From contig CAWCAG010000009.1 in NCBI GenBank assembly GCA_963793425.1, positions 448,001 through 512,000 on the forward strand: DNA of 64,000 nt, read 5' to 3'. Position numbers: made by a program. This stretch comes from an uncultured cyanobacterium. GTDB lineage: Bacteria; Cyanobacteriota; Cyanobacteriia; Cyanobacteriales; CAWCAG01. Shown here piece by piece: positions 32,701-35,700 of the stretch (position 1 is its first letter; the number at the start of each line of letters is the position of its first letter).

Positions 32701-35700
32701 GATCATAAGTATTGCTTAATCTCCTAATTTATTAGTATTCGCCGCTAATTGAGGGAGTCCTTCCCTAGTAACCCGGCAAATTCTCCACTCTTCCATAATC
32801 GCAGCTCCTAAGCTTCTGTAAAAGGCGATCGCAGGTTGATTCCAATCTAAAACACTCCATTCTAAACGCCCTACATTCCTCTCCACTGCAAGTTTGGCGA
32901 CATAACTCAATAAGGCTTTACCAATACCTTGGCGGCGATAAGCAGGGAGAACAAAGATATCTTCTATATAAATACCTGGTTTTGTCAAAAAGGTTGAGTA
33001 GTTGGCAAAGAACAAAGCAAATCCAACCAGTTTCCCTTCCTCTTCAGCAACAATTGCTTCTGCATAAGGTTTTGCACCAAACAGATGCTCTTGGAGAGAT
33101 TCCGGAGTTCCTGTCACCAAATGGGAGAGTTTTTCGTAGGCGGCTAAAGCTTCAATTAAGCTAAAGAGAGTAGGAATATCTGCGGGAGTTGCCAGCCGAA
33201 TAAGCTTATCTGTCATTGAGATAGTAGTGGCGTGATACGCCTAAAATATTGCAATAGTAGGGGCGGGTTTGGAGTCAAATTGTGAGATCAATATTAAACT
33301 AAATAAACCCGCCCTAACACACAATTTTAGCTGGGTTAGGCTAATAGTTTTTAATAAAATAAAGATTGATTTTAAAATTTTAACTACAAACTATGTCGGA
33401 TTACCAACAACAAGTAATCAATTTTTTTAACAGAAGAAGTGCTTACGATGCAGAAGGGGATAAACATCCCAGAGAAGCCAAACTTTTGCTAGAATCAGTT
33501 CCTATTCTATCTGGACAAAAAATCCTTGATCTTGCCACTGGAACTGGCTTAGTAGCTATATCTGCCGCGAAAAAAGTTGCTGAAAAAGGTTCAGTAATTG
33601 GTGTTGATATGTCATCGGGTATGTTGGCTCAAGCTCAAAGCAAGATCGCCGCTGAGGGATTGAATAATATCGAATTGATTGAAGCGGACGTAGAGTCAAT
33701 TAATTTTGCAACAGAACAGTTTGATATTATCTTTTGCTGTTCTGCAATCACTTACTTTAGAGATATTCCGGCAATTCTTAATCAATGTTATCGCTGGCTC
33801 AAAACAGAAGGTTATTTGGCTTTCACTTGTCCTTATAAAACCTCTTATATGGCGCAAATAAAAGTCAGAATCTGCCAGGATTTATGGGGAATTGATTTAC
33901 CGCATATCAATAAACCTCTTTGGACTCCTGAACAATGCCGTTTTCTCTTACAAAAGTCTGGTTTTAAGGATATTGTAATTGAGCTTGAGCGCTCTGGGAA
34001 ATATGTCAATAACGATTATGTCTCTGCCTGGGATGGGCAAGATTTTTATCCGAGAGGCAATCCTTTATTAAATTTATCTTCACAACAAAGAGAGCTACTA
34101 CAGGCTGAGTATAAAAGCGCGATCGCAGAGTTAGTCACTGAACAAGGTGTTTGGCAAGATTCAAGTACTTTGTATGTTAAAGCCCGCAAGGGAAGTATTT
34201 AATTAACAAGGATTTATTTTTGAGAAATAGATTTAACTTCATGGAGTAAATTCTGCAGCAAGCATTTTGGATCATAGAGAATTCGACATCCATTATTAAC
34301 AACACGAAATGTCCCTATTTCTAAAGGGTTAATAGATGCCCAGGAAAGAAAGCCAAAACTAAACTCAATTTCTGTCTGATTTGTAAAGTAAATATGGCGT
34401 GACCAAACTACACCATAATTAATATCTTCCCAAGCTTTAATAGTTAAATCAAGATATTGCCAATCAATTTCCTTAATCCAGGTTTGGCTATTTTTAAATA
34501 TTAAAGGGTCTGGGGTCAAAAACATAAGGTCAATATCTGAATCAAACCTAAAATCCCCCTTGGCATAAGAACCAACTAATGCTAAAGCAATAATATTTAC
34601 ATCCATAGAAGCCCACTGAGTTACTTGTGCTAGTATCGGCTCTATTTTTTGCTGAAGAGATTGCATTACTTATACCATAATTGGATGGGTAATCAGCCAT
34701 GAAAAAAGCCCTAGAGTTAAAAAACTCCAGAGCTTAACCAGGGTGCATCTACCACTTCTTTATTACTTCCCTTTAAGCCTCATATCCGGAACACTTTGCC
34801 TAAATTCGAGAAAATTGCCTTTTACTCTGTCTACCACTAAATGTTAAATATTAAATGTTAAACCTTAAATAATATTCCATGGCCTCATCATCTTCTTTAC
34901 TCCCAGCAGTTTATATTATTGGTGCTGGTCCTGGCGATCCTGATTTATTAACTGTTAAAGCCCTAAAAATTTTGCAGCAGGCAGATATAATCTTAGTTGC
35001 GGATTCTTTGGTTCCCAAACAGATTTGGCAAGGTGTACGTCCTGATGTGGAGTTGGTACGTACTGGAAATAAAACCTTAGAAGAAATTTTACCTTTGATG
35101 ATTGAGGGAGTAAGAGCTAATCGTGTTGTGGTACGCTTGCACTCTGGGGATCTCAGTCTCTACAGTGCCATTCACGAACAAATGAATGCTTTAACAGAAG
35201 CAGGAATTCCTTTTGAATTAGTCCCAGGAATCAGCGCTTTTCAAGCCGCCGCAGCAAAACTACAAACGGAATTAACAGTACCGGACTTAGTACAGACAAT
35301 TATTTTAACCCGCATTAGTGGCCGTGCTTCTGCTGTACCAGAGTCAGAAGATTTAGCTTCTTTAGCAGCCCACAAAGGGAGTCTTTGCCTTTATCTGGCT
35401 GCCCGTCATGTCGAAGCGGCAGAAGAAAAGTTACTCCAGCATTATCCCCCAGATACCCCCGTAGCTATCTGTTTTCGTATAGGTTGGCCAGATGAAAAGA
35501 TATTTTTAGTTACTCTTGAGGAAATGGCTAAAGTTACTCAAGAAAAACAGTTAATTCGGACTACTCTTTATCTCATTAGTCCTGCTTTAAAAACAGATCA
35601 AAAAGTGCGATCCCAGCTTTATCATCCAGAACATTCTCATCTATTTCGTTCCCCTCAAGGGAGCGATATAGTATGACTAAGATTTTAAGTTTAGCTCTAA

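Follow-up and report, generated by a model that had tools for sequence, protein, structure and literature searches.

The closest described counterpart of the gene analyzed here is NsiR1 of Nostoc/Anabaena sp. PCC 7120. Passages of PMC9045159 describe a tandem array of 12 such genes upstream of hetF, in which one copy is antisense to the 5' UTR of that gene; they also name alr3234, coding for a HetP-like protein, as a target in trans. The legend of a review figure ties NsiR1 to heterocystous nitrogen fixers (PMC6596454). According to sections of a 2026 paper (PMC13342950), the hexamer TCCGGA (the DIF1 box) is read at positions -35 to -30 by sigma-HetZ in Anabaena, with one or two box mismatches being tolerated at T-35, G-32 and A-30, which are partly replaceable; its supplement includes an nsiR1 gene in the alignment of sigma-HetZ promoters and a HetZ ChIP peak over nsiR1(1-12) that is reduced in the hetZ mutant. 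HetR, for its part, is stated in portions of PMC4192349 to require GGGnnnnnCCC, with the hetP site being GAGGGGTCTAACCCCTC. In Nodularia and Anabaena, the HetR site of hetZ covers the stretch 56-17 nt upstream of transcription initiation, and both PhetZ and PhetP are activated by HetR in E. coli with a host sigma factor.

Several of these components are also on record from filaments that lack heterocysts. The presence of HetR and PatX in nearly all filamentous cyanobacteria has already been published, and a circuit antedating heterocysts is not a new idea either, having been proposed in print for HetR, PatX and DIF1. Leptolyngbya sp. BL0902, which is nif-less and non-heterocystous, possesses hetR and hetZ-patU, and its patX, directly upstream of hetR, has a predicted DIF1 promoter in front of it. 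The function of hetR and patX in a non-heterocystous strain has been called 'a mystery' (PMC11298460, section 3.3); the word 'sRNA' has 0 occurrences in the BL0902 paper. Limnospira indica PCC 8005, which has hetR-patS and neither forms heterocysts nor fixes nitrogen, produces an NsiR1-like RNA of 57 nt, RNA162, and thus the occurrence of such an RNA in a non-heterocystous organism is itself already published (PMC8400943). In the relevant passages of that paper RNA162 is a single RNA, mentioned briefly, with no analysis of its promoter, no census of copies and no phyletic comparison; a census is given here. Hence, an earlier note on the present genome, which held that its NsiR1 genes would set this marker of heterocyst commitment apart from nitrogen fixation, overstated the novelty of the observation, given the published spread of HetR/PatX, the predicted DIF1 promoter of a nif-less strain and the RNA of Limnospira.

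The window, i.e. the whole stretch of 64,000 nucleotides from an uncultured cyanobacterium that we analyzed (contig CAWCAG010000009.1), contains a single Rfam family, RF02399 (NsiR1), matched at 34700-34754 on the minus strand across the full model (1-60) and scoring 50 bits (gathering score 39; E-value 7.4e-07). The 55-nt RNA encoded at 34700..34754 displays the architecture of the Rfam family, namely a conserved 5' sequence, a small hairpin and an intrinsic terminator within ~60 nt, and belongs to a subtype, TGGTAGATGCACCCTGGTTAAGCTCTGGAG, that is also present in 14 further sequences from 14 genomes. Its computed fold has an energy of -19.3 kcal/mol (z -3.08), with 0 of 200 shuffled versions folding equally well. 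The invariant 5' part (34738..34754, minus strand; RNA nt 1-17), which includes a 3-bp 5' hairpin, is the presumed seed, and nt 1-15 are identical in 15/15 aligned sequences of the subtype. In the minimum-free-energy fold, the terminator hairpin (nt 20-49) and the U run (nt 50-55) occupy 34700..34735 on the same strand, and compensatory changes were observed in 4 of the 10 terminator stem pairs of the consensus structure. Ahead of the RNA, likewise on the minus strand, lie a DIF1 -35 box TCCGGA at 34785..34790, which ends 30 nt ahead of model position 1, and a -10 region, AGTAATAA, at 34760..34767, in which AGTA stands in place of the published TGNA. The promoter can therefore be written as TCCGGA-N17-AGTA-N9-T, with 1 mismatch to the published consensus TCCGGA-N16-17-TGNA-N7-9-T. 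The protein-coding neighbors are outside the element: downstream, at 34214..34666 (minus strand), is a gene for a nucleotidyltransferase-domain protein (PF01909, 3e-07) that is weakly MntA-like (NCBIfam MntA antitoxin, 25.8 bits, under the cut-off), and upstream, in divergent orientation at 34879..35676 (plus strand), is the gene for CobM, a precorrin-4 C11-methyltransferase (TIGR01465, 329.9 bits against a cut-off of 259.65).

A whole-genome search with RF02399 recovered nine matches, of which eight score above the cut-off (39.3-50 bits) and fall at the same eight positions that had been listed in the earlier note; the ninth, at C7:661100-661154 (33.5 bits), is below the cut-off and has TCCGGA upstream. 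Scanning the genome with the seed brings the tally to 11-12 NsiR1 genes, and eight was thus too low a count. The scan adds two complete genes of the second promoter class described below, C5:302888+, which has no Rfam match at E<=0.01, and C5:1627639-, which has 28.8 bits in the Rfam search (below 39), as well as a divergent copy at C5:1627315-. The previous description of the loci as dispersed holds for some copies, which are single, but not for three tandem pairs spaced by 112, 224 and 324 nt. The upstream motifs reported for the eight genes were reproduced throughout: five have TCCGGA, the copy at C9:909671 has TCCTGA, and those at C5:303112 and C9:1006364 have GGGGTGACACCCC. The latter sequence occurs only twice in the genome, each time before an NsiR1 gene. 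TCCGGA occurs 611 times in 5,284,537 bp, and the chance of encountering it at any of the three allowed offsets is ~3.5e-4 per gene, with these per-gene values not being independent because the copies are paralogues. Among the copies in this genome the spacer between box and RNA has diverged, with retention of the TCCGGA box.

Thus, the genes here resemble those of Nostoc/Anabaena sp. PCC 7120 in Rfam family, 5' sequence, size, terminator and the presence of TCCGGA ~35 nt upstream. They differ from the Nostoc array in forming at most pairs, none of which is near hetF, and in having no copy antisense to hetF; the HetF homologue is encoded at C7:203961-206408, and the nearest NsiR1 copies are at C7:66768 and C7:661154. 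Further differences from Nostoc are that we found no HetP family and no nitrogenase, and that a third of the copies have a promoter of the second class.

Class A, which includes the window copy, comprises seven genes in this genome, six with an exact TCCGGA and one with TCCTGA, separated from model position 1 by 29-30 nt. In a survey of 132 NsiR1-family genes from 23 genomes, 50 have an exact TCCGGA 28-30 nt away from model position 1 and 34 more have a box with one mismatch, this being TCCTGA in 26; the proportions are alike for the 60 genes of nif-bearing genomes and the 72 of nif-less ones. An A/T-rich stretch, the box and a GAA.A element at -11 to -7 are common to the class A promoters of both sets of genomes. 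As in the sigma-HetZ promoters of Anabaena 7120 (those driving patS, patX, hetR, patU, sigC, the hep genes and nsiR1), the same -35 hexamer is found at the same distance, and as in that system HetZ and PatU-like genes are present and DIF1 occurs both before a PatX-like ORF and in the 3' end of hetZ. Unlike the Anabaena promoters, the class A set keeps the -10 TGNA only loosely: an exact fit is seen in one of the seven (TGCA at C7:661266), and the rest, with AGTA, CGAA, AAGA, GAAA or CGTA, show one or two mismatches, the final A alone being constant. Across the genome TCCGGA is found at 86 intergenic and 525 coding sites (density ratio 0.84), and since there is no overall intergenic enrichment the motif by itself predicts little; the strict DIF1 consensus has 15 intergenic sites genome-wide, one of which precedes an NsiR1 gene. 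We infer that class A promoters are read by RNA polymerase with sigma-HetZ. The box had previously been termed a HetR-dependent DIF motif; the motif itself stands, whereas its reader in Anabaena is now known to be sigma-HetZ.

The 4-5 class B genes of this genome instead have a GGGG-N5-CCCC palindrome at about -38 to -26, lying over a TTGACA-like hexamer, with a -10 box TATATT 13 nt farther downstream. In 17/17 class B sequences from 14 genomes both GGGG and CCCC are invariant, as is GTAGATGCACCCTGAT in the RNA, and the spacer to the -10 box is variable. We observed this arrangement in at least 120 loci from named heterocystous and non-heterocystous genera, ranging from the Nostocales to Leptolyngbya-, Spirulina- and Phormidesmis-like lineages. 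The palindrome contains the GGGnnnnnCCC core and agrees with the Anabaena hetP repeat GAGGGGTCTAACCCCTC at 11 of 12 arm positions, making it a putative HetR site. Its placement sets it apart from the sites in the Anabaena promoters PhetP and PhetZ: it is found ahead of an sRNA gene, over the -35 region, with its center near -32. A literature search turned up no published HetR site before an NsiR1-type gene. These features suggest that class B genes are under the direct action of HetR; we lean slightly towards activation, as repression would also fit a palindrome that is centered near -32 and overlaps the -35-like hexamer. A further HetR site, a perfect one of the hetP type, is located at C9:228375; neither Pfam nor NCBIfam gave a match for the ORF beside it.

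The genome also encodes the regulators that would act on these promoters. As claimed previously, it lacks a detectable nitrogenase: searches of the 98.62% complete genome gave a best NifH-family match of 215 bits against a cut-off of 394 for nifH, 51.5 bits against 653 for nifD, and zero matches for nifB. The presence of HetR and HetZ in this nif-less genome is likewise borne out, with a true HetZ at C7:380570-381712 (NF037963; 633.9 bits, cut-off 550). A PatX-like ORF with RGSGR lies directly upstream of hetR and has TCCGGA in front of it (C5:352901-354263), matching the patX-hetR layout of BL0902. A PatU-like ORF, assigned by synteny as there is no PatU family model, is situated 3' of hetZ here and at 19/19 other HetZ loci, and TCCGGA is found within the last hetZ codons in 13/20 HetZ genomes of the order sample and in 34/40 further ones of the class sample. 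A GGG-N5-CCC site was not detected within ~1 kb ahead of hetZ, and hence the link from HetR to hetZ is not visible in this genome.

We compared the distribution of these genes in two samples, one of 41 genomes from the order and one of 121 from the class. In the order sample NsiR1 above the cut-off and HetZ occur in the identical 22 of 41 genomes; in the class sample each occurs in 74 of 121, and both in 73. In contrast, nifH is found in 11/22 NsiR1-bearing genomes of the order sample and 23/74 of the class sample. The 51 of 74 carriers without a nifH match span many families, and the earlier assertion that NsiR1 and its DIF box are independent of nitrogen fixation is upheld. One genome with HetR but no HetZ (G031) has a class B gene as its sole NsiR1 copy. 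Three NsiR1-bearing genomes of the order sample (G011, G034 and G039) gave no HetR match, two of these being fragmented and one of the two also containing masked bases. The number of matches per genome varies from 1 to 17, and a genome of the same genus (G001) has 10, pointing to recent duplications within the genus. Together, these patterns show that NsiR1 travels with the HetR/HetZ regulators and not with nitrogen fixation.

The targets established in Nostoc do not carry over to this organism, since none of the copies runs antisense to hetF and the HetP family was not recovered (NF037966, 0 genome matches, in a search whose sensitivity is unproven as the control genomes hold no positive example). 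In a genome scan of 10,325 start regions for pairing with the seed, the PatU-like start ranked ~33rd at -21.1 kcal/mol. Across 20 HetZ loci of the order sample the mean patU pairing was -17.3 kcal/mol, with 1 of 400 shuffled seeds reaching as low, and 11 of the 20 loci were at or below -18, against a shuffle maximum of 10. This signal was not replicated in 40 further genomes of the class sample, where the mean was -14.4 (41 of 300 shuffles as low) and 8/40 loci were at or below -18, a count reached in 11 of 300 shuffles. Accordingly, we regard patU as an improbable conserved target, and ascribe the signal of the order sample to the conserved C-terminus of hetZ and the DIF1 promoter embedded in it. 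Among the other 5' regions tested, none was convincing: hetR gave -20.7 (with long loops), patX -18.1, hetZ -17.9 and hetF -10.1 kcal/mol.

Taking these observations together, we consider it probable that the 11-12 NsiR1 genes are outputs of the HetR/sigma-HetZ core circuit of filamentous cyanobacteria, reached through two types of promoter. Under this proposal, the circuit would be common to filaments regardless of whether they fix nitrogen or form heterocysts. HetR would act on class B genes directly via the palindrome, and on class A genes by way of HetZ and the DIF1 box, hetZ being under HetR in Anabaena, such that the two classes together would constitute a feed-forward output. Each gene would give rise to an RNA of ~55 nt in which GGUAGAUGCACCCUG, the invariant 5' part, is joined by a variable linker to the intrinsic terminator, and this RNA presumably base-pairs with its targets through the invariant 5' part. 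Outside the heterocyst formers the wiring could be different, because in BL0902 the effects of patX looked largely independent of hetR. The stronger version of this proposal, in which NsiR1 is an ancestral and obligatory output of HetR/sigma-HetZ, with feed-forward promoter classes and a conserved target other than hetF or hetP, strikes us as evenly poised between true and false.

What the circuit does in a filament of this kind admits of more than one answer. It could respond across the whole filament to stress or nitrogen status under HetR and HetZ, with no specialization of cells and with the gene copies serving dosage. The high and variable copy number of NsiR1 accords with this, as do the effects of HetR in Leptolyngbya on genes for photosynthesis, respiration and nitrogen metabolism (PMC11298460), and parts of the Limnospira paper discuss the NsiR1-like RNA as a response to the shutdown of nitrogen metabolism under irradiation. 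Nevertheless, the retention beside hetR of a gene for a PatX-like diffusible inhibitor is hard to explain in the absence of a spatial logic, and we hold such a response to be somewhat unlikely. Another possibility is that the circuit fires in single spaced cells and marks a cell type other than the heterocyst, such as dying, filament-breaking or pigment-rich cells. The nsiR1 promoter of Nostoc does fire in single spaced cells ahead of other signs of differentiation (passages of PMC4030482), and both activator-inhibitor pairs, HetR and a PatX-like ORF on the one hand, HetZ and a PatU-like ORF on the other, are present here; such pairs sufficed for the onset of patterned differentiation in Anabaena, as stated in part of PMC13342950, and a passage of the Limnospira paper relays an account of regularly placed pigment-rich cells in Arthrospira. 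However, the sequence is silent on spatial expression, and in BL0902 the deletion of hetR or patX altered hundreds of general-metabolism genes, with PatX not acting as an inhibitor of HetR (PMC11298460). We accordingly view a distinct cell type as rather unlikely.

It could also be argued that the NsiR1 genes are decaying, non-functional remnants inherited from a heterocystous or diazotrophic ancestor, as the hetF linkage and the HetP-family target of Nostoc were not found and the copy at C5:1627315 is divergent. Against this, the seed is invariant, the terminators are maintained by compensatory changes and the promoter boxes are retained even as the spacers diverge. Moreover, the 51 nifH-less carriers in many families and the recent duplications in the genome with 10 matches also speak against decay, and we consider this explanation highly improbable.

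As outputs of the HetR/sigma-HetZ circuit, which we favor, NsiR1 genes would offer a cheap and specific means of recognizing an active HetR/HetZ circuit from genome sequence, and their two promoter classes could serve as reporters for the roles of HetR, PatX and HetZ in filaments that never form heterocysts. If class B genes are indeed direct targets of HetR, the core circuit reported in 2026 would gain an RNA arm. Moreover, if NsiR1 is an ancestral output, its conserved target would be a gene common to all its carriers, and the RNA would open a way to the function of HetR in filaments that are non-heterocystous.

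A gene for the small RNA NsiR1 (RF02399) lies on the reverse strand of the window at 34700-34754, where it is the sole Rfam family detected in the 64 kb and spans the whole model with a score of 50 bits (gathering score 39). Its 55-nt RNA is predicted to form a hairpin of 3 bp at the 5' end, then an unpaired stretch, then a terminator hairpin of 13 bp with a U run behind it (-19.3 kcal/mol, z -3.08, equaled by 0 of 200 shuffles). On the coding (reverse) strand, a TCCGGA box (34790-34785) is separated by 30 bases from model position 1, and AGTAATAA is read at -13 to -6. The flanking genes, coding for a nucleotidyltransferase-domain protein (34214-34666, reverse strand) and cobM (34879-35676, forward strand), have no evident tie to it. 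RNAs of the same subtype (..CCCTGGTTAAGCTCTGGAG..) are present in 14 other genomes, and their alignment displays an invariant first 15 nt and compensatory changes at four terminator pairs. Elsewhere in the window (47540-47610) is one unit of a repeated element, a hairpin TTGGGGGGAyTrrCCCCCCAA followed by ACCCCCCAGCAGGGAAACAAsTGTTTCCC, which forms tandem arrays at C7:405658-406725, C9:49148-50774 and C1:274035-274968 on contigs of this genome (periods of about 152, 203 and 311 nt). Rfam offers no match for it (best E 0.56), and Tandem Repeats Finder returns nothing at it in the window because a single unit stands there.

The earlier note had listed eight dispersed NsiR1 genes, and a whole-genome Rfam search recovers these eight above the cut-off at the same places (39.3-50 bits), along with a ninth match (33.5 bits) that lies downstream of the C7:661214 copy, 112 nt away; as 150 of about 1200 first-look candidates were scored, this count is a lower bound. 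A seed scan (14-nt core, up to 2 mismatches) marks 29 places in the genome, 10 of which combine a seed with 0-1 mismatch and a terminator, two being absent from the Rfam list. The additional genes with seed and terminator are C5:302888 (forward strand, no Rfam match at E<=0.01) and C5:1627639 (reverse strand, 28.8 bits); the scan also yields a divergent copy at C5:1627315 (reverse strand), and the C7:66768 copy is detected by Rfam alone. Seed scan and Rfam together give 11-12 genes, such that eight describes the loci above the cut-off but not the whole set, and "dispersed" applies to the genes outside three pairs (spacings 112, 224 and 324 nt) that hold six of them. The upstream motifs are as first described. 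TCCGGA precedes five of the eight matches above the cut-off, and also the ninth; TCCTGA precedes C9:909671; and GGGGTGACACCCC precedes C5:303112 and C9:1006364. TCCGGA occurs 611 times genome-wide and GGGGTGACACCCC twice, both at NsiR1 genes, while GGGG-N5-CCCC or GGG-N5-CCC also stands at the copies found only by the seed scan. We term genes with the TCCGGA/TCCTGA box class A and those with the hetP-like HetR palindrome class B. Among the class A copies the whole promoter is common only to C9:482754 and C5:1706642; the remaining copies retain the box and the 10 nt immediately ahead of the RNA but have a diverged spacer. Some 230 nt past the divergent copy at C5:1627315 stands a further palindrome, GAGGGGTGATACCCC (C5:1627086-1627098), with no NsiR1 seed after it: perhaps the decayed remnant of a third gene in that cluster, perhaps an additional HetR site.

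The genome, which is 98.62% complete, lacks nitrogenase, as had been claimed: its best NifH-family match reaches 215 bits (cut-off 394), a level seen in all 41 genomes sampled from the same order that fits ChlL; nifD scores 51.5 bits against 653; and the genome search gives no match for nifB. The reported hetR and hetZ are both present, HetR at C5:353364-354263 and true HetZ at C7:380570-381712 (NF037963, 633.9 bits against 550). The ORF directly upstream of hetR encodes 71 aa, is hydrophobic at its N-terminus and contains ...AERGSGRF..., with TCCGGA about 60 nt ahead of its ATG; we read it as a putative PatX, a protein that has no family model by which to check the assignment. Overlapping the hetZ stop is a 337-aa ORF that we call PatU-like, since all 19 other loci compared have a homologue of it after hetZ. 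A HetF homologue is found at C7:203961-206408, and no match to the HetP family in the genome. HetZ-related (C7:463477-464682; NF037964, 621.3 bits against 612) and HetZ-related 2 (C9:319317-320114, a weak match) paralogues are also encoded, the former recurring at about 480-535 bits in nearly every HetZ genome of both samples described below. The nearest named relatives of HetR, at about 80% identity, come from Spirulina strains and Lusitaniella. The organism is presumably filamentous.

NsiR1 has been linked to heterocystous nitrogen fixers in the figure legend of a review (PMC6596454), and an NsiR1-like RNA has been noted in Limnospira (PMC8400943). In raw counts from genomes that include kin and are hence not independent, NsiR1 exceeds the cut-off in 22 of 41 genomes of the order and HetZ (E<=1e-100) is found in exactly those 22, while in 121 genomes from across the class (six shared with the order sample) HetZ and NsiR1 are each found in 74 and both in 73. 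We call the two exceptions fragmented assemblies (G094, 350 contigs; G087, 67% complete). HetR (PF03574) is found in 20 of the 41, 19 of them with NsiR1 above the cut-off, and is not detected in three carriers (G011, with 850 contigs; G039, with masked bases; and G034). nifH is found above its cut-off in 21 of the 41 (11 of 22 carriers, 10 of 19 others) and occurs in 32 of the 121 (23 of 74 carriers, 9 of 47 non-carriers). As 51 of the 74 carriers across the class have no nifH match, the studied genome represents the usual condition rather than an oddity, and the proposed independence of NsiR1 with DIF from nitrogen fixation is upheld. The remaining HetR genome of the order, G031 (3.3 Mb, 3 contigs, 99% complete), has no HetZ match; the one NsiR1-type gene it carries belongs to class B, with a HetR-type palindrome (32.9 bits). 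The HetR arm may here exist naturally in the absence of the HetZ arm.

We classified the promoters of 132 NsiR1 genes from 23 genomes, the studied one included; all listed matches were taken for most of the 22 others, and 2 of 17 for G016. The exact TCCGGA box, with its end 28-30 nt ahead of model position 1, is found in 50, a one-mismatch box in 34 (26 TCCTGA, 4 TCCCGA, 3 CCCGGA, 1 TCCGGG) and GGG-N5-CCC in 31; eight of the 17 others are G021 copies with TCCGGA at a 26-27 nt gap. The split is alike with nif (27 exact, 18 one-mismatch, 10 GGG-N5-CCC and 5 other among 60 genes) and without (23, 16, 21 and 12 among 72). Class A promoters from both kinds of genome have in common an A/T-rich stretch ahead of the box, GAA.A at -11 to -7 and TGG at the start. 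Class B RNAs form their own subtype, TAGTAGATGCACCCTGATGAyTGGGAGAGT...GGCTCTCC and then a U run; in 17 aligned sequences from 14 genomes GGGG, CCCC, the -10 box core and a 16-nt seed are invariant, and the 13 nt from palindrome to -10 box are variable. At C9:1006364 the palindrome occupies -38 to -26, and its central GTGACA, by eye 17 nt ahead of TATATT, appears placed like a -35 hexamer. The pattern GGGG-N5-CCCC-N16-32-GTAGATGCACCCTGATG occurs at at least 120 loci; the matches listed include the heterocystous Anabaena, Dolichospermum, Scytonema (seven loci in tandem), Fischerella, Westiellopsis, Mastigocoleus and Rivularia, and the non-heterocystous Microcoleus, Lyngbya, Symploca, Phormidium, Leptolyngbya, Phormidesmis, Spirulina, Limnothrix, Prochlorothrix and others. 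The Nostoc-like G008 has an array of class A copies linked to hetF and, away from it, one copy each of class B and of the window subtype.

The nsiR1 promoter, with the DIF motif TCCGGA near -35, is active in single prospective heterocysts (PMC4030482), and DIF1 promoters depend more directly on hetZ than on hetR (PMC7377430). HetZ is reported to be a sigma factor touching T-35 to A-30, with the consensus TCCGGA-N16-17-TGNA-N7-9-T; the same source has the nsiR1 promoter in its supplementary alignment and a HetZ ChIP peak covering nsiR1(1-12), and holds PatU3 to be a likely anti-sigma factor (PMC13342950). HetR requires GGGnnnnnCCC, the bound site in PhetP being GAGGGGTCTAACCCCTC (PMC4192349). 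PhetZ and PhetP are activated by HetR in E. coli. We posit that a sigma-HetZ polymerase would transcribe the class A genes, with HetR and a housekeeping sigma factor controlling class B directly; HetR could instead repress class B, because the palindrome overlaps a -35-like hexamer. The RNA itself would act via its invariant 5' part. The 3' end of hetZ lends independent support to the use of DIF1 in nif-less genomes: there TCCGGA-N17-GATGAATAG lies in the last codons, with the PatU-like ATG overlapping the stop (C7:381640-381712), and is kept in 47 of 60 HetZ genomes, the studied one included (13/20 and 34/40; loci L174, L177-L195 and L331-L370). From its sequence, this looks like a sigma-HetZ promoter for patU inside the hetZ coding end. 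At C9:228375-228387, GTGAGGGGTCTAACCCCTCAT contains the Anabaena hetP HetR repeat, identical at 17/17, between aroE (reverse strand) and a 196-aa ORF (C9:228466-229056, forward strand) with no Pfam or NCBIfam match; as no HetP family is found in the genome, the ORF, whatever its kind, may be under direct HetR control.

In Nostoc, NsiR1 has two reported targets: hetF, which it inhibits as an antisense RNA, and alr3234, inhibited in trans (PMC9045159). These targets do not transfer to the studied genome. The patU start region also looked promising as a target, its complementarity standing out in the order sample (1 of 400 shuffles) but no longer in 40 further genomes (41 of 300 shuffles); we attribute it for the most part to the conserved end of hetZ.

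The general evolutionary idea, that the circuit is older than heterocysts, was already published for HetR/PatX/DIF1: Leptolyngbya BL0902, with neither nif nor heterocysts, carries hetR and hetZ-patU together with a patX behind a predicted DIF1 promoter, and the role of these genes was termed a mystery (PMC11298460). As far as the literature searched goes, the tight co-distribution of NsiR1 and HetZ, the class B promoter that bears a HetR-type palindrome ahead of an NsiR1-type gene, and the conserved RNA subtypes are new; we found no description of the first two, on which subscription papers may bear (e.g. Ionescu 2010, Brenes-Alvarez 2019/2020, Videau 2014, Elhai & Khudyakov 2018). The original interpretation was half right: NsiR1 with DIF does stand apart from nitrogen fixation and the complete circuit is in place, but the differentiating cell type that it envisaged is a conjecture, and NsiR1, DIF and the whole circuit without nitrogen fixation are the rule among filamentous cyanobacteria rather than a special case.
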